A stretch of 64,000 nt of DNA from Rhynchopus sp. YZ270_cl-10 (lineage: Eukaryota), in NCBI GenBank assembly GCA_964035575.1, contig OZ037836.1:1550001-1614000 (forward strand). Direction: 5' to 3'. The notes below the pieces were generated by a model, which saw nothing but the letters and a program-made list of their open reading frames with translations, searched no databases and had not been told where the DNA came from. Position 1 is the stretch's first letter, and each line of letters opens with the position of its first letter. The translations under genes and the position numbers were made by a program. Shown piece after piece: positions 36,070 to 61,284 of the stretch.

Positions 36070-36830
36070 ATGTACGTGCACTTCGAGGATTTCAGAGCGA
36101 ATCAGCGCACAGTCGAGGTGGGTGAAGATGACACAGTGGAGGGCTTGCGGCGGAAGGTGGCGACTGCAATGGGGTTGCCTGAAGACAGCTTTTGCATGAG
36201 TTTCGGAGGCGAAGCGATGGGAGAAGGAGCGGACATGACGCAGCTGAGTGCTGGTGACACAATCATCCTCACGAAGACGAAGACGCAGAAGTACGAAGCC
36301 ATTGCAAAGCTTCATGCGTTGGGTGAGAGAAACATCACTGCAGAGAGGTTGGTGGAGGTGGAGGATCCTGAGGTGGCATGTTTGCTTCTGCAGGCGGAGG
36401 TTGCGACTGTCATTCCGTATGGGTTCTTGAGAGAGGCATCGTTAACGCACCTTGATCTGAGTGCTGTGTCCTTTGTGACACAGATTGAAGACAACTTCCT
36501 GGCAGACTGCACCTCGTTGACAAGTATTGACCTATCTGGGTTGAGCAATGTGAAGGTCATTGGCAGTAGCTTTCTTGACGGCTGCGAAGCTTTAACCAAC
36601 CTGGATCTGACACCACTCAACAACGTTACGAGGATTGAGGGTTACTTTCTTTGCAACTGCAACTCTTTAACCACCCTGGATCTTACACCACTCATCAACG
36701 TGACGGTGATTGGCGAGAACTTTCTTGAGAGCTGCAACTCTTTAACCACCCTGGATCTTACACCACTCAACAACGCGACGGTGATTGGCAATGGCTTTCT
36801 TTACGACTGCAACTCGTTAACCACCCTGGA
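36070..36830 (+). pseudogene. Ubl-LRR gene 5, 5' part, interrupted by retrotransposon copy 1
   Basis: Ubl + LRRs ending ...CTCGTTAACCACCCTGGA; continues at 44590. Confidence 0.9.
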
Positions 36831-36960
36831 GGGATACACACAACGTACACAAAAAGAAAGAATATAAACAATGTTTTCGTACATGGTGTCGAAGTCACGT
36901 CCAGCCTCCACGCGGAGTATCCCGGGCAACGATCCGTCACACGGATCGGCCAAGTGGACG
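36831..36960 (+). ncRNA. HDV-like self-cleaving ribozyme (copy 1)
   Basis: P1 GGGATAC/GTATCCC, P2 CGTCCA/TGGACG, P3 GCC/GGA with L3 TCCACGC, P1.1 CC/GG, GCAAC, P4 GATCCGT/ACGGATC, J4/2 GGCCAAG; G1 is the first base of the element. Confidence 0.85.
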
Positions 36961-39735
36961 CCACACCCGCCGGCGCCTGTGTGCTGCAGGTCGTGGAACT
37001 GCTATTGCAGTGACGAGGTGACGGCGGCGGCGGAGCAGGCGCACTGGACTGAGGGGCTACGGCAGCCCGCCTACCCGGGGGCAGGCGGCATGAAGCGCAG
37101 TGCAGGGGAGGAGAGGAAGGATCCCGATGTCTTCATCGGAGTAGTGACGGGCGAGAAGGTGCGGGACACGACGGGGCTGTGTGCGCTGGCGCGTGATGCG
37201 ACGGAGGAGGAACCAGGAACGCACTGGGAAGTAACCCGCCGCCTGGCAAACATCACCAAGGCAGAAGCCGCGTACGAGGGCATCCTGCTCGGGCTTCAAG
37301 GGGTGGCCGACGGGTCGTACCCGAAGGGCACCCACGCGCGCGTGTGGGTCACGCACTTGGTGGTCTGGAGGCAGGTGGCTGAGGGGCACGCCTGCGACTC
37401 GTCGTTGCTGAAGCCGAGGCTGGAGAAGGTGAAGGCGCTGCTGGGCGAGTTGAAGAAGAGGGGGATAAGGGTATCGCTGCAGCACTGCGCGAAGGCGGGG
37501 AAGGGGATGAAGGAGGCAGAGAGCAACGCCCAGCTGGTTGCAGGAGGGGTGTACGCCGCAAGGGGATGCAGGACGGAGACGCTGGCAGCTGCCGTGCAGC
37601 CAGGTGTCAAGGGACACCTGGAAAGATGGGGGTTGCGATGGGAGGAATGTGGGGGCAAGGGGGACTGTCTGTTCCGGTCGGTGGCGTGGTCTGTGGAGCG
37701 GTCCCCGAATGGTCACGCAGGCTTCCGCAGGCTCGCAGTTGAGGTGATGAAGGAGCAGAAGGCACACTACAGCCCATTTGTGGACGAGGGGTGCATTGAT
37801 GCATACCTGGCAGGCATGGCGCAGCTGGGGACATGGGGGGACCATTTGTGTCTCCATGCGATCGCCAAGGTGATGAAGGTCCGCATTGTTGTGCTTGACG
37901 TTGGACCGGAGAACGCGCTACGGGCTACGCTGATCGACGGGCAGTCCGACGGGCAGCTGGCAGAAGGAACTCCGGAGAAGGCTAACCTCACCTTCACGGA
38001 GTCTGACGTAGTCCTGGGGTTCGAGGGGGTACACTACGGTGCTGTGGAATCGGCAGGGTTGAAGGTGGGGGAGGAACTTCTGTGCGCAGTGGGACAACCG
38101 CAACTGCACGTACCGGCTACAGCTGTGAAGGGGAAGAAGAAGGCGACGGCGGTGACCCAGAGCGCAGCGGAGGATGCACTGAACCTGGCGCCCCAGGGAT
38201 GGAAAATACCGGTGTGGGATGCAGTGCCCAGCAATGTGGAAGGGGTGACGCAGGTGGCGGCAGTTGCGTGGAAGGCGAGCGAACTTCTGCAGGGGTTACA
38301 GTTGCTGCACCAACTTCCGCAGATGGTGATTGTGTCCCGTTCGAAGTGTACGGGTGCAGCGCGCACGAAGAAGGCGAAGGTGGCGGTGAAGACGGAGCGG
38401 GGAGCAAAGGTGGAAGAAGTGTGGCTGTCGTCCATGACAACTAACTTGGACGACGTGGTGAAGCCGGTGGAGAGCACGTTCTCGAGCAAGCTGATTACGC
38501 TGATGGGCAGAACGATGTTGCTCCAGGGGGAGGGGCGCACAAAGGGAGAGCAACGCATGCGTCGGTGGTACGGGTTGCAGGGGGTGCGGTGTGGACGCGG
38601 CTTGGAGAGAGGAGGATGGATGGAGATGTCTGTGGACGTGACGGAGGACATGGTGTGCGCCATGCTGAGGAGAAGCGGACGGGAAGGGGTGTTTGTGCGG
38701 CACCTCTTCCAGGCAAAGGAGTACGGGGACTGTGGGTTGTTGTGGAAGGCGGAACCGCTGGAGTCTGCTCTGGCACGGCTGGACCTTGTTGAGGAGAACA
38801 TGGAGGATAGCGTGCGCGGACTCGCCGTAGGGGAAGGGGGCTACGCGGTGCGGGTGATGAAGGGGGACTTGGAGGCTGCGAAGAGGCTTCTTGTGCAGGA
38901 GGACGTCGTCGTGCAGGGACACAGGTACGAGATTGGGGGAATTCCGGCGAACACGTCGGTCCAGCTGTTGTGTGAGGGGCTGGTGAGGGAGGCGAGCTGG
39001 ACGGTGAAGGTGCTGTCGCGAGGGCACAAGTGGACGGTTACGTCGGATGTGCCGTGCCCGAGCACAGAAGGGGTGCTGGAGGTGGGTGGATTGGTGTTGA
39101 CGGTGTGTGCGGTGAAGGAAGGGCGTCGTGTGCAGAAGGTGGGTGCGAATCCGTGGGGTTTCCCTCTGGCGCAGTTCCCAGTACCGAGGCAAGGAGCAGC
39201 AGAGAGCGGCGCTGGCACGTGGGCGGCTAAGGCGAGGGGATACGCACCACCTGCAGCTCGACCCCACCCTGCAACAGGGGCACCGGCGGCTCCGGCACCT
39301 CCCGCAGCTTCATCAGCAGCGCAGGACGAGATAGAGATGATGAAGAAGGAGATGAAGGAATTGCGGGAGATGATGAAGGGCGTCATGGAGCAGCAGAAGG
39401 AGATGTTGGAGGCACAGAAGCGGATGATGGGACAGCCGCAGCAGTCGGCACCAGTCGCGCAACCGCCGCAGCCTCTCGACATGGAACAGCTCAGAGCAGA
39501 ATGTGCTGAGATGAAGGAGACGGTGCAGCAGTGCAAGGACCAGAACGTGCAGCTGGCAGCGGAGAGCAAGCGGCTCACGGAGGAGAACGAGGCGCTGAAG
39601 AAGGCAGCTCGCGAGGCCAAGGACAAGGCCAGGGATGCTCAAGATCGTGGCGGTGAGGAGAAGAAGAAAGATACGACGACGGACGAGAACAGCCGCCCCC
39701 GCGACACGGACAATAACCGAGAAAGGTCGTATTAA
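36871..39735 (+). CDS. Retrotransposon ORF1: degenerate RNase H-like domain, OTU-like cysteine protease, C-terminal coiled coil
   Basis: TKAEAAYEGILLGL...THLVVWRQV...LQH (RNase HI-like pattern, acidic residues replaced); GKGDCLFRSVA / WGDH / HYGAV (OTU boxes); true start may be ATG 37090. Confidence 0.8.
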   Translation: MFSYMVSKSRPASTRSIPGNDPSHGSAKWTPHPPAPVCCRSWNCYCSDEVTAAAEQAHWTEGLRQPAYPGAGGMKRSAGEERKDPDVFIGVVTGEKVRDTTGLCALARDATEEEPGTHWEVTRRLANITKAEAAYEGILLGLQGVADGSYPKGTHARVWVTHLVVWRQVAEGHACDSSLLKPRLEKVKALLGELKKRGIRVSLQHCAKAGKGMKEAESNAQLVAGGVYAARGCRTETLAAAVQPGVKGHLERWGLRWEECGGKGDCLFRSVAWSVERSPNGHAGFRRLAVEVMKEQKAHYSPFVDEGCIDAYLAGMAQLGTWGDHLCLHAIAKVMKVRIVVLDVGPENALRATLIDGQSDGQLAEGTPEKANLTFTESDVVLGFEGVHYGAVESAGLKVGEELLCAVGQPQLHVPATAVKGKKKATAVTQSAAEDALNLAPQGWKIPVWDAVPSNVEGVTQVAAVAWKASELLQGLQLLHQLPQMVIVSRSKCTGAARTKKAKVAVKTERGAKVEEVWLSSMTTNLDDVVKPVESTFSSKLITLMGRTMLLQGEGRTKGEQRMRRWYGLQGVRCGRGLERGGWMEMSVDVTEDMVCAMLRRSGREGVFVRHLFQAKEYGDCGLLWKAEPLESALARLDLVEENMEDSVRGLAVGEGGYAVRVMKGDLEAAKRLLVQEDVVVQGHRYEIGGIPANTSVQLLCEGLVREASWTVKVLSRGHKWTVTSDVPCPSTEGVLEVGGLVLTVCAVKEGRRVQKVGANPWGFPLAQFPVPRQGAAESGAGTWAAKARGYAPPAARPHPATGAPAAPAPPAASSAAQDEIEMMKKEMKELREMMKGVMEQQKEMLEAQKRMMGQPQQSAPVAQPPQPLDMEQLRAECAEMKETVQQCKDQNVQLAAESKRLTEENEALKKAAREAKDKARDAQDRGGEEKKKDTTTDENSRPRDTDNNRERSY

Positions 39736-39743
39736 TCACGACC

Positions 39744-42700
39744 GTGGGCCTTGCCCCACTAAAGATAGTGTGCAGCAATGTGACGGCGCTGCAGACAGGC
39801 GGGAGCTCTCTGCTGAAGGTTGCGGAGGATGCTCACGTTGTTCTGGTACAAGAGACAAAGTGCACCGTGACGACGCAGAAGCGCCTCTCCATCGAGTACC
39901 GCGAGCAGGGTTGGCAGGTGGTGTGGGGTAAGGAGTTGCCGGAATGGAGGTCGGCCGAAGAAGCGAAATCTGGTGGTGTTGCGATTCTGGTGCAAGAGGG
40001 AATACCTGTGCTCACGAGCCCGCCCTCCTCAACCTTGGAAAAGAACCTCTGGGACTCAACGCGATGGGTGAAGGCGAAGGTGGCGTACGGCAAAGGCAAC
40101 GAGTGGATCGACGTGACCTCCGTCTACGCGCCGTCGGCGGACCCGGAGGCTAGGGAGAAAATACTTGGCGAGGTGATGGAGGCTGCTGCAGAGCTTGGTG
40201 ATATTCCTGGGGTGATTGGTGGGGATTTCAACGCAGGTCCAGGGAAATCAGGTGTGCTGGCTGCTACACTGGACACAGGATGGTGGAAGGACACTGCCGA
40301 AGAGCACGCAAGGGTGCTTGGGACGACCCCGGACAACACCTACTTCTCGGTGAAAGACGGCAAGGAGATCCGCAAGAGGCTCGATTACGTTCTGCTGAAC
40401 CGAGCTGCGTGCACAGGGCTGTCGTCTGTGAAGGTTGTCCACGACTCTGGGCTCCCGCAGCACAGACCGGTAGAGATAGCGCTGGATGTAGGTGCGTACA
40501 GGCAGATCGTGCTCGCGTACACTCTGCCGAAGCAGTTCCCTTTGGACAAGTGTGGACAAGGCGTGAAGAATGCACAAAAGGCGTTTGCGAGCAAGGAGCT
40601 GCAGTGGGGGGCGCTTCAACACCCTCAGGATAGGTGGATACAGTGGAACAAGTGGGCAGAGGACTTCTTGCTGCAGGCGTGCGAAGGCGAGATTGAGGGC
40701 CCGACGAAGGCGTATTGCGGAAGAGGCAAAACGTTTGACCCGAAGCCGAAGCACCGGACTGCGAAGCAGAGCAAGGAAGGGGACGCTCTGACAGTGAGCC
40801 AGAGAAGGCTGACGAAGAACGTGGGCAGGCTGGAAGAATGTCGGCTGTGGTACGTGAGGAGCAACGGTGGTGTGCCGCCACATGACGTGTGCAATTGTTG
40901 GAGCAAGGCGCGGAAGGAACTGCGTGTTCTGCTGGACGACGACTCACTGCAACAGGATATGCCTAGCGAGGAGGCTTTGGTGGATCTGTGCAGAGCCGTG
41001 CGAGTGAAGGTGTCAACGCTTGCGGACCGAGTGAAGCGGAAGCGACTGGAGGACTGGCGGCAGCGCCTACGGGATGCATGGCACAATGCTCCCAAGGCGA
41101 TCTTCAAATACTGCAAGGACGAACAGTACAGGAAGATGACTGCCCTGAAGAACGAGGATGGGAAGTTCACCGCCAACGCTGAGGAGATGGACACCCTCCT
41201 GCATGAGGCGTGGATGCCGATTCTTCGCCGATATGCGGAAAAGCCAGAGCCCGACTGGGGTGCGTTTAGGGAGAAGTTTACAGAAGACATCGCAGGCAAG
41301 GGGCAAGCGATGCAGATGGACAGGCTGACGGGGAAGGAGTTGCAGCAAACTCTGGGGAGGATGAAGACACAAACTTCTGCTGGGGTGGAGGGTTGGCGCA
41401 TGGTAGAGCTGAAGGCGCTTCCTCTGGTGCTGCTCGACAGGCTGGCAGATGTGTTTGATGCGATTGAGTGTACGGGGGAGTGGCCGCCTTCTTTGATGAG
41501 AGCACTCATTGCGCTCATCCCCAAAGGGGAAGACGACACCCCGCTGAAGCAGCGACCTATCACGATCACTTCGTGTATCTACAGACTGTGGGCGGCAGCG
41601 AGGTTGCGAAGGCTGATAAAGTGGCAGGAAAGCTGGATTGGTGAGCAACAGCACGGCTTCAGAGCAGGACACAGCACTGCACACCTGTACTGGCATCTGT
41701 CGCTCAAGCTGGAGAAGGCGGTACTGTCGGGTGACGACACAGACCAGGTATGGGGCTTCACGATCGACTACGCCAAATGTTTCGATCGTGTACCTCATGA
41801 GATTGTGCTATCGCTGGCGGAGGAGTGGGGCGCGCACTGGCGTATTCTTGGACCACTGAGGGCTGCGTACACTGCCATGGAACGCCGCTTCAAGTTGGGA
41901 GACGTAGGTGTGGGAGGCACCTTTCGTACGACAAATGGTATCCTGCAAGGATGCCCACTTTCTGTCGTGCTGTTGAACGCGCTGATGGCGGTGTGGGGAT
42001 CTGCAGTGACGAGAAGGACCGGAGCAATCGCCATGGGGTACGCTGACGACGTGTATGCTGTGGCGAACACGGAAGCGGAGGTGCATGGTGCTGCGAGGGT
42101 GACGAAGGAGTTTATCACTGCTGCGGACATGGAGGTCAAGGCAGAGAAGTGCGTAGGGTTTACCTCGAAGGAGGGAACAAAGACGAAGTTTGGACTTGGC
42201 GACGGGCTCTTCCCCGACAAGAAGCAGTTCGGGGCGGTTGGAGCAGACATTTTGGCTGGAAAGGGGAACTTCGGGCCCATCGCGCGTGAGCGTGCGGTTA
42301 CTGCGCACCGTGTGTTTACGAGGGTTTCGAGTGTGCCTTTATCCTTCACTGAGAAGGCACTTATTGGCGCAAGGGGACCAATGATGGCAGCGTTGCATGG
42401 GTGCGAAGTGACAGACTTCTCAAAGCAGACCATAGAGACGCTGAGGCAAGGGGCAGCACTGGCAGTCTGGGGGCAGGGCAGGAAGCAGCGCACGCTGAAC
42501 ATTGTGTGGCATGTGTTATCTCCGGTTGGGATTGATGCGCCAGCGGAGATTGTGCAGAGGAGGATGGCGGCCTTTCTCCGACTGACAGAAGATGACGGCA
42601 TGCGGAGAGAAGCAGAAGACGTGTGGAGGCTGGCACATGACCGAAGAGCGGAGCGGGAGGTGAGGCGGCGTGACAGGGCTTCAGATCTGGCACGTCTCCG

Positions 42701-44510
42701 GCGCGAGAACCCTGGGGTTGCCAACCCAAGGGTTACTGAAGTGCACAAGAAGGGTGTGATAGAGTTGTTGTGGGACGACCTGGAGCGATACGGATGGCGG
42801 TGGAGCAGCTTCGACTTCTGGACCACACACATCGGGTTGAGGGTGCACGTTCGTCTGTGGGACAAGGGCAAATGGCTGCATGAGCTGAGAGAGGGCATCC
42901 GTGCACACGCGTACCGCCTGACAGTGACGACGAGGCCGTCGATGCAGGGCATTGAGGGAGGTGTGGATCGCCAGGCGACGAACGCAGTGTGGAAGGACCG
43001 CACGACCGACAGATACCTGGCGGGCGCGATACGCGGAGCCTTGTCGGGCTCTCAGTTGGTGGGGGTGCAGCTGCTGAGGAACAAGGAGGTGGAGACTTCG
43101 TTGTGCCGATACTGTGGTGAGGCGATAGAGGACCGGAGACACGCTTGGTGGTGGTGCCCGCAGTGGGACGAAATTCGTGGAGAGGACATCGGAAAACTCC
43201 GGGTTTTGCTCAAAGACGCACCCCCGTGCTTCTTGGACTTTGGCCTGGTGCCGACGATATTCTTGCAGGAGCTGAGTGTTGCGGAGAGAGAGCAGACGGT
43301 GCGTCGTGTGCAACTGATGCTGGTCAGCATCGCGCTGGCAAGGCAGAAGTACGACGTGGAACATGGGTTTTCGCAGAAGAAGAAGAAGCAAGCGGTGGTG
43401 GGCCAATCCCTTTTTCCTTGGGGCTGGAATCCTCAGGAGGGTGCAGTGCTTGAGAGCTACAACCCGCTGGAGAACGTACTGTGGGGGAGCAAGTACATGA
43501 AGAAGAGTCCACGCTGGACGGAAGACCACTTCTGGGCGCTGAAGGCATGGCTCGCTGCATTGCGTTGGCCTGATGGCACAACGCCCCCCATCACGCAGCT
43601 CGAGCTCATGCTGGACTTTGAGATCTTCTCGGGGTTGGACGTACCGGGTGAGACGGTGTTGAAGAGGGCCGAATCTTTTGGTGCCATGATGCGGACGGCG
43701 AAAACTATGGCGCATGGAAGGGACGTATGGAAAGGAGTGGAGAAGAGGGAGGTGCACCACTTACAGGAACTGGGTGCGGGGATCATGACGGGGTATTCTG
43801 TGCGACCTGTGCTGACGCATGCGGCGGGGGTTGAAGGATACCTGAAGGAGTTGCAGGAGAAGGCGACGTCGCGGAGAGCACTCTCCCGACAAAAGGAAAA
43901 GACGAAGGCGAGGTGGGGTGACGACGCGGATGTGGCTCATACTTCCACTCCGGAAGAACGCTCAGCAAAGAACGAACGCTGGAAGGAAGCGAAGGAAGAG
44001 CAGAAGCAGGCAGAGGAGGTGCGTAGTAGAGCTGCGATAGCTGCAGTTGCGGCAGAGCAGATTCGACGACAGGAGGCACGCAGGCGGCAGACACCGGCTG
44101 TGCGTGTGGACGTAAGGAGGAAGGTGGGGGCCATGCGGGTGTGTGACATACACACCAAGATGCGATGCGGGGACTGCGAGCACAACAACATCTCCATCAC
44201 GGCGTGTTGTGCGACGCACCATTGTGATGAGCTTATTTTGGGTGACTGTGTGGAGGCGCGTGAGGCGTGTGAGGTGCATAACTTCTCGATGTGCGGACAG
44301 TGTGCGGGTGCGGGGAACGTGTCGATGAAGCAGTGCTGTCAGAAGCACCACAACTGTGTGGCCCACGGGAGGGGTGCTTGCGGTGCATGTGTGCAGGCGG
44401 GACGGAAGAGGAAGAAGGACGGATTGCCGATGCTGGCGTCTCCTCAGGCCTGTTGCGGGAAAGGGCACCACGACACGTCCCAGGGGCGTCTCGGGTTTGC
44501 CCCGCGATAA
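39744..44510 (+). CDS. Retrotransposon ORF2: APE endonuclease, reverse transcriptase, CCHC finger, C-terminal Cys/His repeats
   Basis: CSNV, VQET, VYAP, GDFN, LDY, QH (APE); RPI, QHGF, DYAKCFD, QGCPLS, YADD (RT); CRYC-x8-H-x4-C; called start is GTG. Confidence 0.95.
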   Translation: MGLAPLKIVCSNVTALQTGGSSLLKVAEDAHVVLVQETKCTVTTQKRLSIEYREQGWQVVWGKELPEWRSAEEAKSGGVAILVQEGIPVLTSPPSSTLEKNLWDSTRWVKAKVAYGKGNEWIDVTSVYAPSADPEAREKILGEVMEAAAELGDIPGVIGGDFNAGPGKSGVLAATLDTGWWKDTAEEHARVLGTTPDNTYFSVKDGKEIRKRLDYVLLNRAACTGLSSVKVVHDSGLPQHRPVEIALDVGAYRQIVLAYTLPKQFPLDKCGQGVKNAQKAFASKELQWGALQHPQDRWIQWNKWAEDFLLQACEGEIEGPTKAYCGRGKTFDPKPKHRTAKQSKEGDALTVSQRRLTKNVGRLEECRLWYVRSNGGVPPHDVCNCWSKARKELRVLLDDDSLQQDMPSEEALVDLCRAVRVKVSTLADRVKRKRLEDWRQRLRDAWHNAPKAIFKYCKDEQYRKMTALKNEDGKFTANAEEMDTLLHEAWMPILRRYAEKPEPDWGAFREKFTEDIAGKGQAMQMDRLTGKELQQTLGRMKTQTSAGVEGWRMVELKALPLVLLDRLADVFDAIECTGEWPPSLMRALIALIPKGEDDTPLKQRPITITSCIYRLWAAARLRRLIKWQESWIGEQQHGFRAGHSTAHLYWHLSLKLEKAVLSGDDTDQVWGFTIDYAKCFDRVPHEIVLSLAEEWGAHWRILGPLRAAYTAMERRFKLGDVGVGGTFRTTNGILQGCPLSVVLLNALMAVWGSAVTRRTGAIAMGYADDVYAVANTEAEVHGAARVTKEFITAADMEVKAEKCVGFTSKEGTKTKFGLGDGLFPDKKQFGAVGADILAGKGNFGPIARERAVTAHRVFTRVSSVPLSFTEKALIGARGPMMAALHGCEVTDFSKQTIETLRQGAALAVWGQGRKQRTLNIVWHVLSPVGIDAPAEIVQRRMAAFLRLTEDDGMRREAEDVWRLAHDRRAEREVRRRDRASDLARLRRENPGVANPRVTEVHKKGVIELLWDDLERYGWRWSSFDFWTTHIGLRVHVRLWDKGKWLHELREGIRAHAYRLTVTTRPSMQGIEGGVDRQATNAVWKDRTTDRYLAGAIRGALSGSQLVGVQLLRNKEVETSLCRYCGEAIEDRRHAWWWCPQWDEIRGEDIGKLRVLLKDAPPCFLDFGLVPTIFLQELSVAEREQTVRRVQLMLVSIALARQKYDVEHGFSQKKKKQAVVGQSLFPWGWNPQEGAVLESYNPLENVLWGSKYMKKSPRWTEDHFWALKAWLAALRWPDGTTPPITQLELMLDFEIFSGLDVPGETVLKRAESFGAMMRTAKTMAHGRDVWKGVEKREVHHLQELGAGIMTGYSVRPVLTHAAGVEGYLKELQEKATSRRALSRQKEKTKARWGDDADVAHTSTPEERSAKNERWKEAKEEQKQAEEVRSRAAIAAVAAEQIRRQEARRRQTPAVRVDVRRKVGAMRVCDIHTKMRCGDCEHNNISITACCATHHCDELILGDCVEAREACEVHNFSMCGQCAGAGNVSMKQCCQKHHNCVAHGRGACGACVQAGRKRKKDGLPMLASPQACCGKGHHDTSQGRLGFAPR

Positions 44511-44521
44511 CGAAGGTGGTC

Positions 44522-44576
44522 ACGTGGCGCCTTTCTCACCTCTCAGTTCATCTGAGAAGGTGGGGATGGGTCACGT
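44522..44576 (+). other. 3'-UTR stem-loop of the retrotransposon (also 58062-58116)
   Basis: ACGTGGC/GTCACGT outer stem and CACCTCTCAG/CTGAGA(A)GGTG inner stem, followed by CAACAAGTTTAA(T) with no poly(A). Confidence 0.7.
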
Positions 44577-44589
44577 CAACAAGTTTAAT

Positions 44590-45362
44590 CTCGTTAACCA
44601 CCCTGGATCTCACACCACTCAACAACGCGACGGTGATTGGCAATAACTTTCTTTGCTCCTGCGTCTCTTTAGCCACCCTGGATCTGACACCACTCAACCA
44701 CATGACGGTGATTAGCAGTGGCTTTCTTTCCGGCTGCACTTCTCTAACCAACCTGGATCTGACACCACTCAACAACGTTACGAGGATTGAGAGTAACTTT
44801 CTTCACTACTGCCAAGGTTTAACCACCCTGGATCTCACACCACTCAACAACGCGACGGTGATTGGCGATCGCTTTCTTTCCGACTGCAGCTCTTTAACCA
44901 CTCTGGATCTGACACCACTCAACAACATGACGGTGATTAGCAGTAGCTTTCTTTCCGGCTGCAACTCTTTAACCACCCTGGATCTGACACCACTCAACAA
45001 CGTTACGCGGATTGAGCATTACTTTCTTCGCGGCTGTAAATGTTTAACCACCCTGGATCTTACACCACTCAACAACGTGACGGCGATTGGCGATAGCTTT
45101 CTTTGCGACTGCAGCTCTTTAACCACCCTGGATGTGACACCACTCAACAACATTACGAATATTGAGCGTTACTTTCTTTACGGCTGCAACTCTTTAACCA
45201 GCCTGGATCTCACACCACTCCACAACGTGAGGATGAGCAGGTGTGGCAACGCCTTTCTTGCCGGCTGCACCTCTTTAACCACCCTGCATCTGACGCCTGA
45301 ACAACGTGACGGGTGATTGACGATAGCTTTCTTAACGGATGCAACTCTTTAACCACCCTGGA
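44590..45362 (+). pseudogene. Ubl-LRR gene 5, middle part (about 10 LRRs, indels near 45295-45315)
   Basis: LDLTPLNN repeats resume right after the TSD. Confidence 0.85.
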
Positions 45363-48862: not shown

Positions 48863-49215
48863 CTCTATCACACCCTTCTTGTACACTTCTTCTGTTACCC
48901 TTGGGTTGGCAACCCCAGGGTTCTCGCGCCTGAGACGTGCCAGATCTGAAGCCCTGTCACGCCGCCTCACCTCCCGCTCCGCTCTTCGGTCAAGTGCCAG
49001 CCTCCACACTTCTTCTGCTTCTCTCCGCATGCCGTCATCTTCTGTCAGTCGGAGAAAGGCCGCCATCCTCCTCTGCACAATCTCCGCTGGCGCATCAATC
49101 CCAACCGGAGACAACACATGCCACACAATGTTGAGCGTGCGCTGCTTCCTGCCCCGCCCCCAGACTGCTAGTGCTGCCCCTTGCCTCAGCGTCTCAATGG
49201 TCTGCTTTGAAAAGT
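48863..49215 (-). mobile_element. Inverted, diverged internal fragment of retrotransposon ORF2
   Basis: Minus strand encodes WHVLSPVGIDAPAEIVQRRMAAF...NPRVTEEVYKKGVIE, matching about 42415-42765 with substitutions and a codon indel. Confidence 0.9.
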
Positions 49216-50370: not shown

Positions 50371-50500
50371 GGGATACACACAACGTACACAAAAAGAAAG
50401 AATATAAACAATGTTTTCGTACATGGTGTCGAAGTCACGTCCAGCCTCCACGCGGAGTATCCCGGGCAACGATCCGTCACACGGATCGGCCAAGTGGACG
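50371..50500 (+). ncRNA. HDV-like ribozyme (copy 2)
   Basis: Same sequence as 36831-36960. Confidence 0.85.
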
Positions 50501-53275
50501 CCACACCCGCCGGCGCCTGTGTGCTGCAGGTCGTGGAACTGCTATTGCAGTGACGAGGTGACGGCGGCGGCGGAGCAGGCGCACTGGACTGAGGGGCTAC
50601 GGCAGCCCGCCTACCCGGGGGCAGGCGGCATGAAGCGCAGTGCAGGGGAGGAGAGGAAGGATCCCGATGTCTTCATCGGAGTAGTGACGGGCGAGAAGGT
50701 GCGGGACACGACGGGGCTGTGTGCGCTGGCGCGTGATGCGACGGAGGAGGAACCAGGAACGCACTGGGAAGTAACCCGCCGCCTGGCAAACATCACCAAG
50801 GCAGAAGCCGCGTACGAGGGCATCCTGCTCGGGCTTCAAGGGGTGGCCGACGGGTCGTACCCGAAGGGCACCCACGCGCGCGTGTGGGTCACGCACTTGG
50901 TGGTCTGGAGGCAGGTGGCTGAGGGGCACGCCTGCGACTCGTCGTTGCTGAAGCCGAGGCTGGAGAAGGTGAAGGCGCTGCTGGGCGAGTTGAAGAAGAG
51001 GGGGATAAGGGTATCGCTGCAGCACTGCGCGAAGGCGGGGAAGGGGATGAAGGAGGCAGAGAGCAACGCCCAGCTGGTTGCAGGAGGGGTGTACGCCGCA
51101 AGGGGATGCAGGACGGAGACGCTGGCAGCTGCCGTGCAGCCAGGTGTCAAGGGACACCTGGAAAGATGGGGGTTGCGATGGGAGGAATGTGGGGGCAAGG
51201 GGGACTGTCTGTTCCGGTCGGTGGCGTGGTCTGTGGAGCGGTCCCCGAATGGTCACGCAGGCTTCCGCAGGCTCGCAGTTGAGGTGATGAAGGAGCAGAA
51301 GGCACACTACAGCCCATTTGTGGACGAGGGGTGCATTGATGCATACCTGGCAGGCATGGCGCAGCTGGGGACATGGGGGGACCATTTGTGTCTCCATGCG
51401 ATCGCCAAGGTGATGAAGGTCCGCATTGTTGTGCTTGACGTTGGACCGGAGAACGCGCTACGGGCTACGCTGATCGACGGGCAGTCCGACGGGCAGCTGG
51501 CAGAAGGAACTCCGGAGAAGGCTAACCTCACCTTCACGGAGTCTGACGTAGTCCTGGGGTTCGAGGGGGTACACTACGGTGCTGTGGAATCGGCAGGGTT
51601 GAAGGTGGGGGAGGAACTTCTGTGCGCAGTGGGACAACCGCAACTGCACGTACCGGCTACAGCTGTGAAGGGGAAGAAGAAGGCGACGGCGGTGACCCAG
51701 AGCGCAGCGGAGGATGCACTGAACCTGGCGCCCCAGGGATGGAAAATACCGGTGTGGGATGCAGTGCCCAGCAATGTGGAAGGGGTGACGCAGGTGGCGG
51801 CAGTTGCGTGGAAGGCGAGCGAACTTCTGCAGGGGTTACAGTTGCTGCACCAACTTCCGCAGATGGTGATTGTGTCCCGTTCGAAGTGTACGGGTGCAGC
51901 GCGCACGAAGAAGGCGAAGGTGGCGGTGAAGACGGAGCGGGGAGCAAAGGTGGAAGAAGTGTGGCTGTCGTCCATGACAACTAACTTGGACGACGTGGTG
52001 AAGCCGGTGGAGAGCACGTTCTCGAGCAAGCTGATTACGCTGATGGGCAGAACGATGTTGCTCCAGGGGGAGGGGCGCACAAAGGGAGAGCAACGCATGC
52101 GTCGGTGGTACGGGTTGCAGGGGGTGCGGTGTGGACGCGGCTTGGAGAGAGGAGGATGGATGGAGATGTCTGTGGACGTGACGGAGGACATGGTGTGCGC
52201 CATGCTGAGGAGAAGCGGACGGGAAGGGGTGTTTGTGCGGCACCTCTTCCAGGCAAAGGAGTACGGGGACTGTGGGTTGTTGTGGAAGGCGGAACCGCTG
52301 GAGTCTGCTCTGGCACGGCTGGACCTTGTTGAGGAGAACATGGAGGATAGCGTGCGCGGACTCGCCGTAGGGGAAGGGGGCTACGCGGTGCGGGTGATGA
52401 AGGGGGACTTGGAGGCTGCGAAGAGGCTTCTTGTGCAGGAGGACGTCGTCGTGCAGGGACACAGGTACGAGATTGGGGGAATTCCGGCGAACACGTCGGT
52501 CCAGCTGTTGTGTGAGGGGCTGGTGAGGGAGGCGAGCTGGACGGTGAAGGTGCTGTCGCGAGGGCACAAGTGGACGGTTACGTCGGATGTGCCGTGCCCG
52601 AGCACAGAAGGGGTGCTGGAGGTGGGTGGATTGGTGTTGACGGTGTGTGCGGTGAAGGAAGGGCGTCGTGTGCAGAAGGTGGGTGCGAATCCGTGGGGTT
52701 TCCCTCTGGCGCAGTTCCCAGTACCGAGGCAAGGAGCAGCAGAGAGCGGCGCTGGCACGTGGGCGGCTAAGGCGAGGGGATACGCACCACCTGCAGCTCG
52801 ACCCCACCCTGCAACAGGGGCACCGGCGGCTCCGGCACCTCCCGCAGCTTCATCAGCAGCGCAGGACGAGATAGAGATGATGAAGAAGGAGATGAAGGAA
52901 TTGCGGGAGATGATGAAGGGCGTCATGGAGCAGCAGAAGGAGATGTTGGAGGCACAGAAGCGGATGATGGGACAGCCGCAGCAGTCGGCACCAGTCGCGC
53001 AACCGCCGCAGCCTCTCGACATGGAACAGCTCAGAGCAGAATGTGCTGAGATGAAGGAGACGGTGCAGCAGTGCAAGGACCAGAACGTGCAGCTGGCAGC
53101 GGAGAGCAAGCGGCTCACGGAGGAGAACGAGGCGCTGAAGAAGGCAGCTCGCGAGGCCAAGGACAAGGCCAGGGATGCTCAAGATCGTGGCGGTGAGGAG
53201 AAGAAGAAAGATACGACGACGGACGAGAACAGCCGCCCCCGCGACACGGACAATAACCGAGAAAGGTCGTATTAA
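50411..53275 (+). CDS. Retrotransposon ORF1 (copy 2)
   Basis: 954 aa, same translation as copy 1. Confidence 0.8.
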   Translation: MFSYMVSKSRPASTRSIPGNDPSHGSAKWTPHPPAPVCCRSWNCYCSDEVTAAAEQAHWTEGLRQPAYPGAGGMKRSAGEERKDPDVFIGVVTGEKVRDTTGLCALARDATEEEPGTHWEVTRRLANITKAEAAYEGILLGLQGVADGSYPKGTHARVWVTHLVVWRQVAEGHACDSSLLKPRLEKVKALLGELKKRGIRVSLQHCAKAGKGMKEAESNAQLVAGGVYAARGCRTETLAAAVQPGVKGHLERWGLRWEECGGKGDCLFRSVAWSVERSPNGHAGFRRLAVEVMKEQKAHYSPFVDEGCIDAYLAGMAQLGTWGDHLCLHAIAKVMKVRIVVLDVGPENALRATLIDGQSDGQLAEGTPEKANLTFTESDVVLGFEGVHYGAVESAGLKVGEELLCAVGQPQLHVPATAVKGKKKATAVTQSAAEDALNLAPQGWKIPVWDAVPSNVEGVTQVAAVAWKASELLQGLQLLHQLPQMVIVSRSKCTGAARTKKAKVAVKTERGAKVEEVWLSSMTTNLDDVVKPVESTFSSKLITLMGRTMLLQGEGRTKGEQRMRRWYGLQGVRCGRGLERGGWMEMSVDVTEDMVCAMLRRSGREGVFVRHLFQAKEYGDCGLLWKAEPLESALARLDLVEENMEDSVRGLAVGEGGYAVRVMKGDLEAAKRLLVQEDVVVQGHRYEIGGIPANTSVQLLCEGLVREASWTVKVLSRGHKWTVTSDVPCPSTEGVLEVGGLVLTVCAVKEGRRVQKVGANPWGFPLAQFPVPRQGAAESGAGTWAAKARGYAPPAARPHPATGAPAAPAPPAASSAAQDEIEMMKKEMKELREMMKGVMEQQKEMLEAQKRMMGQPQQSAPVAQPPQPLDMEQLRAECAEMKETVQQCKDQNVQLAAESKRLTEENEALKKAAREAKDKARDAQDRGGEEKKKDTTTDENSRPRDTDNNRERSY

Positions 53276-53283
53276 TCACGACC

Positions 53284-56200
53284 GTGGGCCTTGCCCCACT
53301 AAAGATAGTGTGCAGCAATGTGACGGCGCTGCAGACAGGCGGGAGCTCTCTGCTGAAGGTTGCGGAGGATGCTCACGTTGTTCTGGTACAAGAGACAAAG
53401 TGCACCGTGACGACGCAGAAGCGCCTCTCCATCGAGTACCGCGAGCAGGGTTGGCAGGTGGTGTGGGGTAAGGAGTTGCCGGAATGGAGGTCGGCCGAAG
53501 AAGCGAAATCTGGTGGTGTTGCGATTCTGGTGCAAGAGGGAATACCTGTGCTCACGAGCCCGCCCTCCTCAACCTTGGAAAAGAACCTCTGGGACTCAAC
53601 GCGATGGGTGAAGGCGAAGGTGGCGTACGGCAAAGGCAACGAGTGGATCGACGTGACCTCCGTCTACGCGCCGTCGGCGGACCCGGAGGCTAGGGAGAAA
53701 ATACTTGGCGAGGTGATGGAGGCTGCTGCAGAGCTTGGTGATATTCCTGGGGTGATTGGTGGGGATTTCAACGCAGGTCCAGGGAAATCAGGTGTGCTGG
53801 CTGCTACACTGGACACAGGATGGTGGAAGGACACTGCCGAAGAGCACGCAAGGGTGCTTGGGACGACCCCGGACAACACCTACTTCTCGGTGAAAGACGG
53901 CAAGGAGATCCGCAAGAGGCTCGATTACGTTCTGCTGAACCGAGCTGCGTGCACAGGGCTGTCGTCTGTGAAGGTTGTCCACGACTCTGGGCTCCCGCAG
54001 CACAGACCGGTAGAGATAGCGCTGGATGTAGGTGCGTACAGGCAGATCGTGCTCGCGTACACTCTGCCGAAGCAGTTCCCTTTGGACAAGTGTGGACAAG
54101 GCGTGAAGAATGCACAAAAGGCGTTTGCGAGCAAGGAGCTGCAGTGGGGGGCGCTTCAACACCCTCAGGATAGGTGGATACAGTGGAACAAGTGGGCAGA
54201 GGACTTCTTGCTGCAGGCGTGCGAAGGCGAGATTGAGGGCCCGACGAAGGCGTATTGCGGAAGAGGCAAAACGTTTGACCCGAAGCCGAAGCACCGGACT
54301 GCGAAGCAGAGCAAGGAAGGGGACGCTCTGACAGTGAGCCAGAGAAGGCTGACGAAGAACGTGGGCAGGCTGGAAGAATGTCGGCTGTGGTACGTGAGGA
54401 GCAACGGTGGTGTGCCGCCACATGACGTGTGCAATTGTTGGAGCAAGGCGCGGAAGGAACTGCGTGTTCTGCTGGACGACGACTCACTGCAACAGGATAT
54501 GCCTAGCGAGGAGGCTTTGGTGGATCTGTGCAGAGCCGTGCGAGTGAAGGTGTCAACGCTTGCGGACCGAGTGAAGCGGAAGCGACTGGAGGACTGGCGG
54601 CAGCGCCTACGGGATGCATGGCACAATGCTCCCAAGGCGATCTTCAAATACTGCAAGGACGAACAGTACAGGAAGATGACTGCCCTGAAGAACGAGGATG
54701 GGAAGTTCACCGCCAACGCTGAGGAGATGGACACCCTCCTGCATGAGGCGTGGATGCCGATTCTTCGCCGATATGCGGAAAAGCCAGAGCCCGACTGGGG
54801 TGCGTTTAGGGAGAAGTTTACAGAAGACATCGCAGGCAAGGGGCAAGCGATGCAGATGGACAGGCTGACGGGGAAGGAGTTGCAGCAAACTCTGGGGAGG
54901 ATGAAGACACAAACTTCTGCTGGGGTGGAGGGTTGGCGCATGGTAGAGCTGAAGGCGCTTCCTCTGGTGCTGCTCGACAGGCTGGCAGATGTGTTTGATG
55001 CGATTGAGTGTACGGGGGAGTGGCCGCCTTCTTTGATGAGAGCACTCATTGCGCTCATCCCCAAAGGGGAAGACGACACCCCGCTGAAGCAGCGACCTAT
55101 CACGATCACTTCGTGTATCTACAGACTGTGGGCGGCAGCGAGGTTGCGAAGGCTGATAAAGTGGCAGGAAAGCTGGATTGGTGAGCAACAGCACGGCTTC
55201 AGAGCAGGACACAGCACTGCACACCTGTACTGGCATCTGTCGCTCAAGCTGGAGAAGGCGGTACTGTCGGGTGACGACACAGACCAGGTATGGGGCTTCA
55301 CGATCGACTACGCCAAATGTTTCGATCGTGTACCTCATGAGATTGTGCTATCGCTGGCGGAGGAGTGGGGCGCGCACTGGCGTATTCTTGGACCACTGAG
55401 GGCTGCGTACACTGCCATGGAACGCCGCTTCAAGTTGGGAGACGTAGGTGTGGGAGGCACCTTTCGTACGACAAATGGTATCCTGCAAGGATGCCCACTT
55501 TCTGTCGTGCTGTTGAACGCGCTGATGGCGGTGTGGGGATCTGCAGTGACGAGAAGGACCGGAGCAATCGCCATGGGGTACGCTGACGACGTGTATGCTG
55601 TGGCGAACACGGAAGCGGAGGTGCATGGTGCTGCGAGGGTGACGAAGGAGTTTATCACTGCTGCGGACATGGAGGTCAAGGCAGAGAAGTGCGTAGGGTT
55701 TACCTCGAAGGAGGGAACAAAGACGAAGTTTGGACTTGGCGACGGGCTCTTCCCCGACAAGAAGCAGTTCGGGGCGGTTGGAGCAGACATTTTGGCTGGA
55801 AAGGGGAACTTCGGGCCCATCGCGCGTGAGCGTGCGGTTACTGCGCACCGTGTGTTTACGAGGGTTTCGAGTGTGCCTTTATCCTTCACTGAGAAGGCAC
55901 TTATTGGCGCAAGGGGACCAATGATGGCAGCGTTGCATGGGTGCGAAGTGACAGACTTCTCAAAGCAGACCATAGAGACGCTGAGGCAAGGGGCAGCACT
56001 GGCAGTCTGGGGGCAGGGCAGGAAGCAGCGCACGCTGAACATTGTGTGGCATGTGTTATCTCCGGTTGGGATTGATGCGCCAGCGGAGATTGTGCAGAGG
56101 AGGATGGCGGCCTTTCTCCGACTGACAGAAGATGACGGCATGCGGAGAGAAGCAGAAGACGTGTGGAGGCTGGCACATGACCGAAGAGCGGAGCGGGAGG

Positions 56201-58050
56201 TGAGGCGGCGTGACAGGGCTTCAGATCTGGCACGTCTCCGGCGCGAGAACCCTGGGGTTGCCAACCCAAGGGTTACTGAAGTGCACAAGAAGGGTGTGAT
56301 AGAGTTGTTGTGGGACGACCTGGAGCGATACGGATGGCGGTGGAGCAGCTTCGACTTCTGGACCACACACATCGGGTTGAGGGTGCACGTTCGTCTGTGG
56401 GACAAGGGCAAATGGCTGCATGAGCTGAGAGAGGGCATCCGTGCACACGCGTACCGCCTGACAGTGACGACGAGGCCGTCGATGCAGGGCATTGAGGGAG
56501 GTGTGGATCGCCAGGCGACGAACGCAGTGTGGAAGGACCGCACGACCGACAGATACCTGGCGGGCGCGATACGCGGAGCCTTGTCGGGCTCTCAGTTGGT
56601 GGGGGTGCAGCTGCTGAGGAACAAGGAGGTGGAGACTTCGTTGTGCCGATACTGTGGTGAGGCGATAGAGGACCGGAGACACGCTTGGTGGTGGTGCCCG
56701 CAGTGGGACGAAATTCGTGGAGAGGACATCGGAAAACTCCGGGTTTTGCTCAAAGACGCACCCCCGTGCTTCTTGGACTTTGGCCTGGTGCCGACGATAT
56801 TCTTGCAGGAGCTGAGTGTTGCGGAGAGAGAGCAGACGGTGCGTCGTGTGCAACTGATGCTGGTCAGCATCGCGCTGGCAAGGCAGAAGTACGACGTGGA
56901 ACATGGGTTTTCGCAGAAGAAGAAGAAGCAAGCGGTGGTGGGCCAATCCCTTTTTCCTTGGGGCTGGAATCCTCAGGAGGGTGCAGTGCTTGAGAGCTAC
57001 AACCCGCTGGAGAACGTACTGTGGGGGAGCAAGTACATGAAGAAGAGTCCACGCTGGACGGAAGACCACTTCTGGGCGCTGAAGGCATGGCTCGCTGCAT
57101 TGCGTTGGCCTGATGGCACAACGCCCCCCATCACGCAGCTCGAGCTCATGCTGGACTTTGAGATCTTCTCGGGGTTGGACGTACCGGGTGAGACGGTGTT
57201 GAAGAGGGCCGAATCTTTTGGTGCCATGATGCGGACGGCGAAAACGATGGCGCGTGGAAGGGACGTATGGAAAGGAGTGGAGAAGAGGGAGGTGCACCAC
57301 TTACAGGAACTGGGTGCGGGGATCATGACGGGGTATTCTGTGCGACCTGTGCTGACGCATGCGGCGGGGGTTGAAGGATACCTGAAGGAGTTGCAGGAGA
57401 AGGCGACGTCGCGGAGAGCACTCTCCCGACAAAAGGAAAAGACGAAGGCGAGGTGGGGTGACGACGCGGATGTGGCTCATACTTCCACTCCGGAAGAACG
57501 CTCAGCAAAGAACGAACGCTGGAAGGAAGCGAAGGAAGAGCAGAAGCAGGCAGAGGAGGTGCGTAGTAGAGCTGCGATAGCTGCAGTTGCGGCAGAGCAG
57601 ATTCGACGACAGGAGGCACGCAGGCGGCAGACACCGGCTGTGCGTGTGGACGTAAGGAGGAAGGTGGGGGCCATGCGGGTGTGTGACATACACACCAAGA
57701 TGCGATGCGGGGACTGCGAGCACAACAACATCTCCATCACGGCGTGTTGTGCGACGCACCATTGTGATGAGCTTATTTTGGGTGACTGTGTGGAGGCGCG
57801 TGAGGCGTGTGAGGTGCATAACTTCTCGATGTGCGGACAGTGTGCGGGTGCGGGGAACGTGTCGATGAAGCAGTGCTGTCAGAAGCACCACAACTGTGTG
57901 GCCCACGGGAGGGGTGCTTGCGGTGCATGTGTGCAGGCGGGACGGAAGAGGAAGAAGGACGGATTGCCGATGCTGGCGTCTCCTCAGGCCTGTTGCGGGA
58001 AAGGGCACCACGACACGTCCCAGGGGCGTCTCGGGTTTGCCCCGCGATAA
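53284..58050 (+). CDS. Retrotransposon ORF2 APE-RT (copy 2)
   Basis: 1588 aa; visible difference from copy 1: KTMARG vs KTMAHG. Confidence 0.95.
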   Translation: MGLAPLKIVCSNVTALQTGGSSLLKVAEDAHVVLVQETKCTVTTQKRLSIEYREQGWQVVWGKELPEWRSAEEAKSGGVAILVQEGIPVLTSPPSSTLEKNLWDSTRWVKAKVAYGKGNEWIDVTSVYAPSADPEAREKILGEVMEAAAELGDIPGVIGGDFNAGPGKSGVLAATLDTGWWKDTAEEHARVLGTTPDNTYFSVKDGKEIRKRLDYVLLNRAACTGLSSVKVVHDSGLPQHRPVEIALDVGAYRQIVLAYTLPKQFPLDKCGQGVKNAQKAFASKELQWGALQHPQDRWIQWNKWAEDFLLQACEGEIEGPTKAYCGRGKTFDPKPKHRTAKQSKEGDALTVSQRRLTKNVGRLEECRLWYVRSNGGVPPHDVCNCWSKARKELRVLLDDDSLQQDMPSEEALVDLCRAVRVKVSTLADRVKRKRLEDWRQRLRDAWHNAPKAIFKYCKDEQYRKMTALKNEDGKFTANAEEMDTLLHEAWMPILRRYAEKPEPDWGAFREKFTEDIAGKGQAMQMDRLTGKELQQTLGRMKTQTSAGVEGWRMVELKALPLVLLDRLADVFDAIECTGEWPPSLMRALIALIPKGEDDTPLKQRPITITSCIYRLWAAARLRRLIKWQESWIGEQQHGFRAGHSTAHLYWHLSLKLEKAVLSGDDTDQVWGFTIDYAKCFDRVPHEIVLSLAEEWGAHWRILGPLRAAYTAMERRFKLGDVGVGGTFRTTNGILQGCPLSVVLLNALMAVWGSAVTRRTGAIAMGYADDVYAVANTEAEVHGAARVTKEFITAADMEVKAEKCVGFTSKEGTKTKFGLGDGLFPDKKQFGAVGADILAGKGNFGPIARERAVTAHRVFTRVSSVPLSFTEKALIGARGPMMAALHGCEVTDFSKQTIETLRQGAALAVWGQGRKQRTLNIVWHVLSPVGIDAPAEIVQRRMAAFLRLTEDDGMRREAEDVWRLAHDRRAEREVRRRDRASDLARLRRENPGVANPRVTEVHKKGVIELLWDDLERYGWRWSSFDFWTTHIGLRVHVRLWDKGKWLHELREGIRAHAYRLTVTTRPSMQGIEGGVDRQATNAVWKDRTTDRYLAGAIRGALSGSQLVGVQLLRNKEVETSLCRYCGEAIEDRRHAWWWCPQWDEIRGEDIGKLRVLLKDAPPCFLDFGLVPTIFLQELSVAEREQTVRRVQLMLVSIALARQKYDVEHGFSQKKKKQAVVGQSLFPWGWNPQEGAVLESYNPLENVLWGSKYMKKSPRWTEDHFWALKAWLAALRWPDGTTPPITQLELMLDFEIFSGLDVPGETVLKRAESFGAMMRTAKTMARGRDVWKGVEKREVHHLQELGAGIMTGYSVRPVLTHAAGVEGYLKELQEKATSRRALSRQKEKTKARWGDDADVAHTSTPEERSAKNERWKEAKEEQKQAEEVRSRAAIAAVAAEQIRRQEARRRQTPAVRVDVRRKVGAMRVCDIHTKMRCGDCEHNNISITACCATHHCDELILGDCVEAREACEVHNFSMCGQCAGAGNVSMKQCCQKHHNCVAHGRGACGACVQAGRKRKKDGLPMLASPQACCGKGHHDTSQGRLGFAPR

Positions 58051-58128
58051 CGAAGGTGGTCACGTGGCGCCTTTCTCACCTCTCAGTTCATCTGAGAAGG
58101 TGGGGATGGGTCACGTCAACAAGTTTAA

Positions 58129-58371: not shown

Positions 58372-58501
58372 GGGATACACACAACGTACACAAAAAGAAA
58401 GAATATAAACAATGTTTTCGTACATGGTGTCGAAGTCACGTCCAGCCTCCACGCGGAGTATCCCGGGCAACGATCCGTCACACGGATCGGCCAAGTGGAC
58501 G
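58372..58501 (+). ncRNA. HDV-like ribozyme (copy 3)
   Basis: Same sequence as 36831-36960. Confidence 0.85.
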
Positions 58502-61276: not shown

Positions 61277-61284
61277 TCACGACC

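Follow-up and report, generated by a model that had tools for sequence, protein, structure and literature searches.

An OTU domain beside a degenerate RNase H-like fold in the ORF1 of a young LINE from Rhynchopus sp. YZ270_cl-10

Proteases of the ubiquitin and SUMO systems recur in unrelated transposons (PMC2836005, PMC4640811, PMC6431247, PMC13405545). Among the retrotransposons without long terminal repeats (LTRs), a Ulp1 protease is found in NeSL and Utopia-1_TSP (PMC4640811), while a long interspersed nuclear element (LINE) of Symbiodinium necroappetens has an OTU domain at the N-terminus of the protein of its second open reading frame (ORF2p), and the ORF2p of Dualen/RandI carries a Josephin domain (both PMC13405545, a preprint). 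OTU domains are also carried by Ginger1 transposases (PMC2836005) and by animal Helitrons/Helentrons (PMC6431247). Further, archaeal-type RNase H domains are present in oomycete Utopia, plant Ta11 and oomycete L1 elements (PMC4640811, PMC5348765), and the ORF1 protein (ORF1p) of CR1/L2/RTEX bears an esterase (PMC5408684). Here we describe a LINE from a stretch of 64,000 nucleotides of Rhynchopus sp. YZ270_cl-10 (contig OZ037836.1, positions 1,550,001 to 1,614,000, forward strand; assembly GCA_964035575.1), hereinafter the window, whose ORF1 combines an OTU domain with a degenerate RNase H-like fold.

An OTU domain in a LINE is not unprecedented, given the Symbiodinium ORF2p (PMC13405545). As in that protein and in Dualen, a deubiquitinase-family domain is part of an APE-type LINE protein; unlike them, the window element has its OTU in a separate ORF1, between an RNase H fold predicted to be dead and a core resembling an RNA-recognition motif (RRM). 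With Ginger1 and the Helitrons it shares a transposon-borne PF02338 domain, for which a ubiquitin-system role during transposition is there a proposal; however, those are DNA transposons, with the OTU fused to a transposase or RepHel and, as far as the accessible descriptions go, no pseudo-RNase H. NeSL, Utopia, Ta11 and the oomycete L1 offer precedents for the capture of a ubiquitin-like protease or an archaeal-type RNase H by a non-LTR element, and the RNase H of Utopia likewise lies upstream of the reverse transcriptase (RT). In contrast to the window element, the protease of NeSL/Utopia is a Ulp1 and not an OTU, and the RNase H of Utopia, Ta11 and L1 resides in the RT protein with a D-E-D-R-D active site, whereas the domain described here belongs to ORF1 and lacks three of the acids. 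An earlier reading of this locus made without database searches (the sequence-only reading) had compared it with LINE proteases, and those comparisons hold, both for Ulp1 in NeSL/Utopia (PMC4640811) and for Josephin in Dualen (PMC13405545). CR1/L2/RTEX resemble it in that their gag-like ORF1 has likewise captured an enzyme domain, but there the enzyme is an SGNH esterase, as against an OTU plus a pseudo-RNase H. The literature searched, with Repbase and subscription papers outside its scope, yielded no report of a LINE ORF1 with either an OTU or a degenerate RNase H; the accessible text of PMC9940879, PMC12278014 and PMC5203782 holds nothing on OTU domains in LINEs, and that of the Diplonema papillatum genome paper (PMC10161547) gives LINE ORFs without domain detail. 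As far as searched, therefore, the OTU in ORF1, the retained pseudo-RNase H and a catalytic dyad maintained across the lineage are new, protease capture as such being already known.

ORF1 presents, in order, the RNase H-like domain, the OTU domain, the RRM-like core and a predicted C-terminal coiled coil (Table 1; residues are numbered as in protein P0001, which runs one residue ahead of the Met, i.e., protein +1). The six motifs on which the sequence-only reading had built its two domain calls all fall in one open frame, namely AEAAYEG at residue 132 (37261), VTHLVV at 161 (37348) and EAES at 216 (37513) in the RNase H-like part, and GKGDCLFRSVA at 263 (37654), WGDHLCLHAIA at 323 (37834) and HYGAV at 389 in the OTU part. 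The two codon positions it gave are correct, Cys267 being encoded by TGT at 37666 and His389 by CAC at 38032, and its central claim, an atypical LINE ORF1 with an OTU and a degenerate RNase H-like fold, is borne out.

The OTU domain is real by both profile and structure. It scores 48.4 bits with Pfam PF02338 (cut-off 23.3; E 1.7e-12); a Foldseek search with the AlphaFold2 (AF2) model returns OTUD3 as the best match (E 4.6e-9, TM 0.81 by target length), and the best structural matches in VIA are human OTUD3 (Z 18.4, 139 residues, rmsd 3.1), human OTUD1 (Z 17.0) and yeast Otu2 (Z 15.1), with a structural identity of about 20%. Cys267, Trp323 and His389 are conserved in 21/21 close sequences, the window protein counted in. 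A wider comparison set comprises nine element-type OTUs, including P0001 and P0006, which amount to about six independent lineages; 9/9 of these keep both the Cys and the His of the active site. As none of them has D, N, S, E or Q two residues after the His (Gly391 in the window protein), the OTU, judged by its sequence, carries a Cys-His dyad instead of the canonical triad. The Cys-3 position is occupied by Lys264, whereas cellular OTUs mostly have an Asp there and a polar residue at His+2. The domain had been called intact-looking, a description that holds for the invariant Cys267 and His389 but not for Cys-3, which lacks the Asp, nor for the missing third residue of the triad. In a quick 59-row tree, in which 50 out of about 130 other OTUs were included, the element-type OTUs form one side of a branch with an SH-aLRT of 83. 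Among the aligned relatives no domain is better conserved than the OTU, since six aligned element-type proteins are 29–73% identical to the window's OTU, against 18–24% in the RNase H region of distant relatives. Of 65 metagenome loci with OTU-only matches, none (0/65) also matched an RT, the ORF1 core or the RNase H-like domain.

The RNase H-like domain was recovered by fold and by profile–profile comparison. Sequence-profile searches of ORF1 against Pfam, NCBIfam, PDB sequences and, by tblastn, phages gave no RNase H match, Pfam listing neither RVT_3 (PF13456) nor RNase_H up to an E of 1; an mL54 match (E 0.02) in the profile searches lacked support from the fold searches and was dropped. 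Our own RNase HI profile scores the domain at 11.2 bits (E 0.003 among 184 proteins). With a model of the domain alone, Foldseek places an archaeal RNase HI on top (4e19, prob 0.99, E 0.039), and VIA ranks 1–14 are all RNase H chains or RNase H-containing RTs, the best spanning 109 residues at Z 8.3 and rmsd 3.1; the full model gives Z 9.5. An hhalign comparison with 120 archaeal-type RNase HI sequences yields a probability of 96% (E 2.4e-9), as against 1.2% with reversed columns, 0.54% or less in 40/40 column shuffles and at most 0.44% for eight non-overlapping ORF1 windows. The references were gathered by scanning for a query-like motif, and the set therefore favours the archaeal type; the three of them that were checked are all RVT_3 (3/3). 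Atlas gives RVT_3 at 0.90 with 152 shared features, which we treat as a lead only. The degenerate RNase H-like fold of the sequence-only reading is thus supported by both structure (Z 8.3–9.5) and profile comparison (96%).

The four catalytic acids, retained in 119, 120, 119 and 117 of the 120 references, correspond in the window protein to V93 (Asp), A135 (Glu), T162 (Asp) and either E216 or E218 (Asp), and the Arg of the archaeal type corresponds to K209, a position with Arg or Lys in 20/21 close sequences. The proposed replacement of the acids consequently stands for three of the four, the last being ambiguous between Glu216 and Glu218. RNase H catalysis requires the carboxylates; with three of four gone, the domain is predicted to be catalytically inactive. 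The first Asp, kept in 119/120 references, is lost in all six lineages or families compared, while other acids survive here and there: the Glu in P0008, the Asp in P0007, and a Glu and an Asp in the D. papillatum family.

Downstream of the OTU, the region of residues 682–752 matches the RRM of TRMT2A (VIA Z 8.3 over 70 residues), with possible further ferredoxin-like domains at 538–615 and 620–679, for which the VIA matches are weak; Atlas returned only scores of 0.85 or less for the core (residues 440–760), and a Pfam scan of ORF1 found no match to an ORF1 family. In the C-terminal part the AF2 model has helices at 817–854 and 872–927. On these models, the RRM-like domain may bind RNA. The core is homologous to the pre-APE region of four D. 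papillatum LINE gene models (hhalign 80%, E 1.5e-5; profile search, E 6e-11 to 7e-9). As those four models have the core without a Pfam match to OTU, we infer that the core is the basic ORF1 and that the RNase H-like and OTU domains are N-terminal additions to it. The coiled-coil region also occurs, at 52–56% identity, at the ends of the ankyrin-repeat-like models P0010, P0011, P0012, P0014 and P0033, suggesting that these are old insertions or exapted pieces.

A protein search over 1.84 billion representatives gave 936 matches, the best 150 of which were listed; two word-seeded protein searches gave only two sister families, so that the distant relatives all come from the larger search. Among the matches listed are the distant ORF1-like P0007, P0008, P0009, P0015, P0030 and P0031, and also P0068, in which an OTU is fused directly to APE-RT in one frame, the same order as in the Symbiodinium necroappetens ORF2p. 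P0068, P0195 and P0197 constitute a second LINE family with a dyad-type OTU directly ahead of APE-RT. An 11-member D. papillatum cluster aligns with residues 69–931 of ORF1 (25%, E 8e-35); one D. papillatum member, P0188, has an in-frame deletion of the N-terminal half of its OTU. ORF2 is 32–34% identical to D. papillatum proteins and about 44% to a cluster with Rhynchopus euleeides transcripts, the nearest named ORF2s being diplonemid, and the layout of ORF1, which recurs in distant relatives, D. papillatum proteins among them, points to a diplonemid lineage for the element. Between the sister families, the RNase H-like domain, the OTU and the first part of the core are 71–73% identical, as against 92–95% for the later core and tail, which suggests either an N-terminal module swap or a faster change of the N-terminal part.

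With target-site duplications, 5′-truncated copies (the latter in public contigs) and no LTRs, the element is an APE-type non-LTR retrotransposon. Copy 1 consists of a 40-nt 5′ untranslated region (UTR), ORF1, ORF2 and a 78-nt 3′ UTR without a poly(A) tail; its ends are confirmed by public contigs, X2 starting at 36831 and X3 stopping at 44588. The 3′ UTR forms a very stable stem-loop (z −5.4; 0/200 shuffles as good). Copy 2 differs from copy 1 by two substitutions, both in ORF2, and ORF1 is identical at the nucleotide level in all three window copies; given these copies and a further 15 plus 6 database members, the LINE is young and intact. A duplication in the assembly was rejected as the source of the copies, as their flanks, the letters of their duplications and two ORF2 bases differ, and an independent contig crosses the left junction without differences. 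A 353-bp inverted ORF2 fragment, 96% identical to the full copies, lies at 48863–49215.

Copy number and target spectrum were read from three sources, namely the window, clusters in databases and public contigs. All three window copies (3/3) sit at one site, behind the same motif, in protein-coding 75-bp leucine-rich repeats (LRRs) (36813–36830, 50353–50370 and 58354–58371), the duplications of copies 1 and 2 being 18 bp with copy-specific letters; copies 2 and 3 interrupt a single host gene 243 bases apart. Public contigs provide more junctions in LRR repeats together with other, unlike flanks, and in runs X2 and X9 a 61-base 3′-end fragment with its own duplication occupies an unrelated site. 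The LRR repeat is thus a preferred, perhaps not a strict, target, 3/3 window copies at the LRR site standing against copies elsewhere in the contigs. No report of a LINE preferring a protein-coding LRR repeat was found in the literature searched. The host genes form a cluster coding for an N-terminal ubiquitin-like domain (Ubl) followed by BspA-type LRR arrays of variable length (10630, 24644–25765, 27962–29017, 30469–33093, 36070 and 49460), of which three are intact, two interrupted and one a Ubl-only fragment. The gene interrupted by copy 1 matches LRR_5 (E 4e-15) and, below the Pfam cut-off, ubiquitin (E 1e-4). The insertions lie in the LRR repeats and none in the Ubl. All six window Ubl domains end without Gly-Gly, so that the host Ubl is not a cleavable substrate. 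P0030, a 24%-identical relative, is called as a single protein with a host-family Ubl (53% identity, E 3e-19) ahead of its OTU, but may be a chimeric gene call.

ORF2 matches Exo_endo_phos (E 2.7e-9) and RVT_1 (E 1.4e-22) in Pfam, which gave no RNase H match there, and its best PDB match is human LINE-1 ORF2p (E 1.2e-13). It overlaps ORF1 by 19 nt and has its first ATG only at codon 154, within the APE domain. ORF1 terminates in the loop of a hairpin (z −2.0; 7/200 shuffles), after which comes a second hairpin (39717–39790). Inspection of the overlap by eye showed no canonical slippery heptamer, and an NPGP (2A-like) motif is absent from both ORF1 and ORF2; ORF2 probably starts by re-initiation, at a non-AUG codon or by frameshift. 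Its C-terminus (44090–44510) has a repeated Cys/His-rich motif that is shared with the 44%-identical P0178 and has no Pfam match; this is possibly a zinc-binding module for target recognition.

A viral system offers a functional parallel for the dyad. The OTU of turnip yellow mosaic virus (TYMV) lacks a third catalytic residue, yet is a poor but real deubiquitinase (DUB) as well as a polyprotein protease, and its DUB activity is directed at the virus's own polymerase (PMC3744425, PMC5695851, as far as their accessible text goes). The TYMV PRO/DUB and the LINE OTU share the OTU fold, the Cys-His dyad and the lack of an Asp/Asn third residue. They differ in that the former is a domain of a viral replicase with both activities proven; moreover, the LINE OTU has a Trp and a pre-Cys loop missing in TYMV, and its fold is nearer to OTUD3/OTUD1. 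With a confidence that falls somewhat short of even, we propose that the OTU is a weak, locally acting DUB carried in the ribonucleoprotein (RNP) of the element, which it would protect. An ancestor would have acquired an RNase HI of the archaeal type as well as an OTU, while the core and coiled coil would package the element RNA. Such packaging is the general role of ORF1 proteins. The RNase H fold, its catalysis lost, would have been retained as a binding or positioning module for RNA, an RNA:DNA hybrid or a protein. With the RNA coated by many copies of ORF1p, an OTU of low efficiency would be locally concentrated and might then strip ubiquitin from ORF1p, ORF2p or nearby host proteins and so lessen their degradation, a protective step modelled on the TYMV dyad OTU acting for its polymerase. 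In favour of this function count the OTU fold and family, the invariant Cys and His (21/21 and 9/9), the strong conservation of the OTU, the grouping of the nine element-type OTUs in the tree, the TYMV precedent, the recurrence of such proteases in transposons, the loss of the first RNase H Asp in all six lineages or families and the young, intact state of the element.

Several observations weigh against this proposal and the domain assignments on which it is built. The active site departs from that of other OTUs at three positions: Asp at Cys-3 is found in 0/9 element-type OTUs versus 122/130 others; Cys-1 is Asp in 9/9, where the others have Asn in 112/130 and Asp in 5/130; and a D, N, S, E or Q at His+2 is found in 0/9 versus 98/108 (the patterns used left 3/133 other OTUs without a Cys motif and 22/130 without a His motif). 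Such alterations could equally reflect a new substrate or a loss of activity. Further, since related D. papillatum LINE gene models have the core without an OTU match, the OTU appears dispensable in the wider group, and the linkage of P0007, P0008, P0009, P0030 and P0031 to an ORF2 is putative, drawn from protein homology. The domain-only model of the RNase H-like domain is of moderate confidence (pLDDT 63, the first three strands <50). In relatives, the RNase H assignment leans on collinearity, as the D. papillatum family alone reaches only 0.8% against RNase HI and the hhalign set without the window's lineage 17%.

The weak-DUB proposal has to be set beside a different use of the same dyad, in which the OTU is mainly a self-processing endopeptidase that frees the pseudo-RNase H or cuts an ORF1–ORF2 fusion made by −1 frameshifting. 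Viral OTU-fold proteases do likewise, the dyad resembles that of TYMV PRO, itself a polyprotein processor, and the junction described above (ORF2 in the −1 frame, a 19-nt overlap, no ATG before codon 154 and the stop in a hairpin loop) would suit such a fusion, as would P0068 with its OTU fused straight to APE-RT. A Gly-Gly also lies 12–48 residues before the OTU Cys in 7/9 element-type OTUs versus 12/105 others. However, its position is not fixed, and the chance rate is 0.11–0.44 each in these Gly-rich proteins; it is absent from P0007, P0016 and 5/8 D. papillatum family members, and a conserved di-glycine cleavage site ahead of the OTU is not supported. The window element has no LRGG or LRGA in ORF1 or ORF2, nor was a canonical slippery heptamer seen in the overlap. 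The sequence-only reading had raised polyprotein processing as an option, and it finds no backing in a conserved LRGG-type site, with Gly-Gly before the OTU in only 3/8 D. papillatum members; we regard self-processing as unlikely, if the most serious of the competitors. Catalysis might instead have been given up altogether, both added domains being pseudo-enzymes or binding modules, with an OTU that would bind ubiquitin, or partners carrying it, with no useful turnover, and a Cys and His kept for other reasons. In 9/9 both the Cys-3 Asp and the third residue of the triad are missing, the adjoining RNase H domain is already dead by prediction, and the deletion in P0188 removes half of the OTU. 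Against this, the Cys, the His and the Trp-Gly motif are invariant over about six distant lineages in which most positions vary, and Cys-3 works via its backbone nitrogen according to the accessible text of PMC3744425, which leaves the side chain free to change; such a double pseudo-enzyme thus strikes us as quite improbable.

The sequence-only reading had also hinted at counter-defence, with the OTU countering or engaging the ubiquitin-like/LRR proteins of the interrupted genes. The interruption of Ubl-LRR genes at one site by 3/3 window copies, the calling of P0030 with a host-family Ubl ahead of its OTU and the lower identity of the N-terminal than of the C-terminal half between sister families would fit such a role. 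Yet the insertions are in the LRR repeats, the host Ubls lack Gly-Gly in 6/6 cases, and a multicopy LRR-repeat DNA target explains the association without any link at the protein level; truncated and 3′ junction copies lie at other sites, P0030 may be chimeric, and OTU-ORF1 is also present in D. papillatum without any observed link to such genes. The connection with the host Ubl is therefore weak, and we hold the idea to be very doubtful. Its most elaborate form, which we offer as a long shot, would make ORF1p a weapon against the ubiquitin system: the dead RNase H would dock the dyad OTU on the element's RNA:DNA hybrid or RNP, the element would prefer inserting into host ubiquitin-like/LRR genes with an uncleavable Ubl, knocking out Ubl-LRR decoys or sensors, and an arms race would drive the N-terminal swaps. 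A further possibility concerns the other added domain, which might still be an active nuclease supplying the RNase H that ORF2 lacks. The missing RNase H match in ORF2, the Arg/Lys at the archaeal-type Arg position in 20/21 and the two acids retained by the D. papillatum family are compatible with this, but Val, Ala and Thr stand where 119, 120 and 119 of the 120 references have the acids, and the first Asp is retained by no relative, making an active enzyme scarcely credible.

Apart from the LINE and its host genes, the window codes for a MULE transposase with a SWIM finger in a 1010-codon open frame (13884–16916, minus strand), an FHA-domain protein that weakly matches Tpt1/KptA (PTS_2-RNA) (21829–23733), partly duplicated at 26093–26959, and a WD40 protein containing a long tandem repeat rich in proline (1229–5665).

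Table 1. Positions of the LINE, its coding regions and domains and its insertion site, in window coordinates (aa, residues in P0001 numbering)
Feature	Position	Strand	Evidence or remark
Interrupted host gene, 5′ part: ubiquitin-like domain, then BspA-type LRRs	36070..36830	+	Pfam
Left target-site duplication, copy 1, 18 bp	36813..36830	+	Inside host-gene LRR repeat
Full-length LINE copy 1, 7,758 bp	36831..44588	+	Junctions, duplication, public contig ends
ORF1, 954 aa	36871..39735	+	Starts with the Met at 36871 in the open frame 36868-39735
Archaeal-type RNase H-like domain, aa 85-228	37120..37551	+	VIA, Foldseek, hhalign, joint alignment
OTU domain, aa 245-397	37600..38058	+	Pfam, PDB sequence, Foldseek, VIA, motif counts
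ORF1 core, aa 446-752	38203..39123	+	Fold matches; homology to D. papillatum LINE models
Long helices near the C-terminus (coiled coil by prediction), aa 817-927	39316..39648	+	AF2
ORF2: APE endonuclease, RT, zinc-finger-like motif	39717..44510	+	−1 frame relative to ORF1
3′ UTR, 78 nt	44511..44588	+	Stem-loop
Right target-site duplication, copy 1	44590..44607	+	Repeats the left one, including a copy-specific base
LINE copy 2, 7,758 bp	50371..58128	+	Own 18-20 bp duplication
LINE copy 3	58372..64000	+	Extends past window end; host gene is that of copy 2

Ubiquitin and SUMO proteases are a recurrent acquisition of transposons, and in the accessible literature their role is only speculated upon. 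As the element is young, intact and compact, with an OTU of ~150 residues and a relative in D. papillatum, the choice between deubiquitination and self-processing is directly assayable. The loss of the third catalytic residue across the lineage parallels the plant-virus OTU proteases and suggests convergent tuning. The preference of a LINE for a protein-coding LRR repeat would be an unusual choice of target, and a dead RNase H retained in ORF1 across distant lineages would represent a new kind of ORF1 accessory module.

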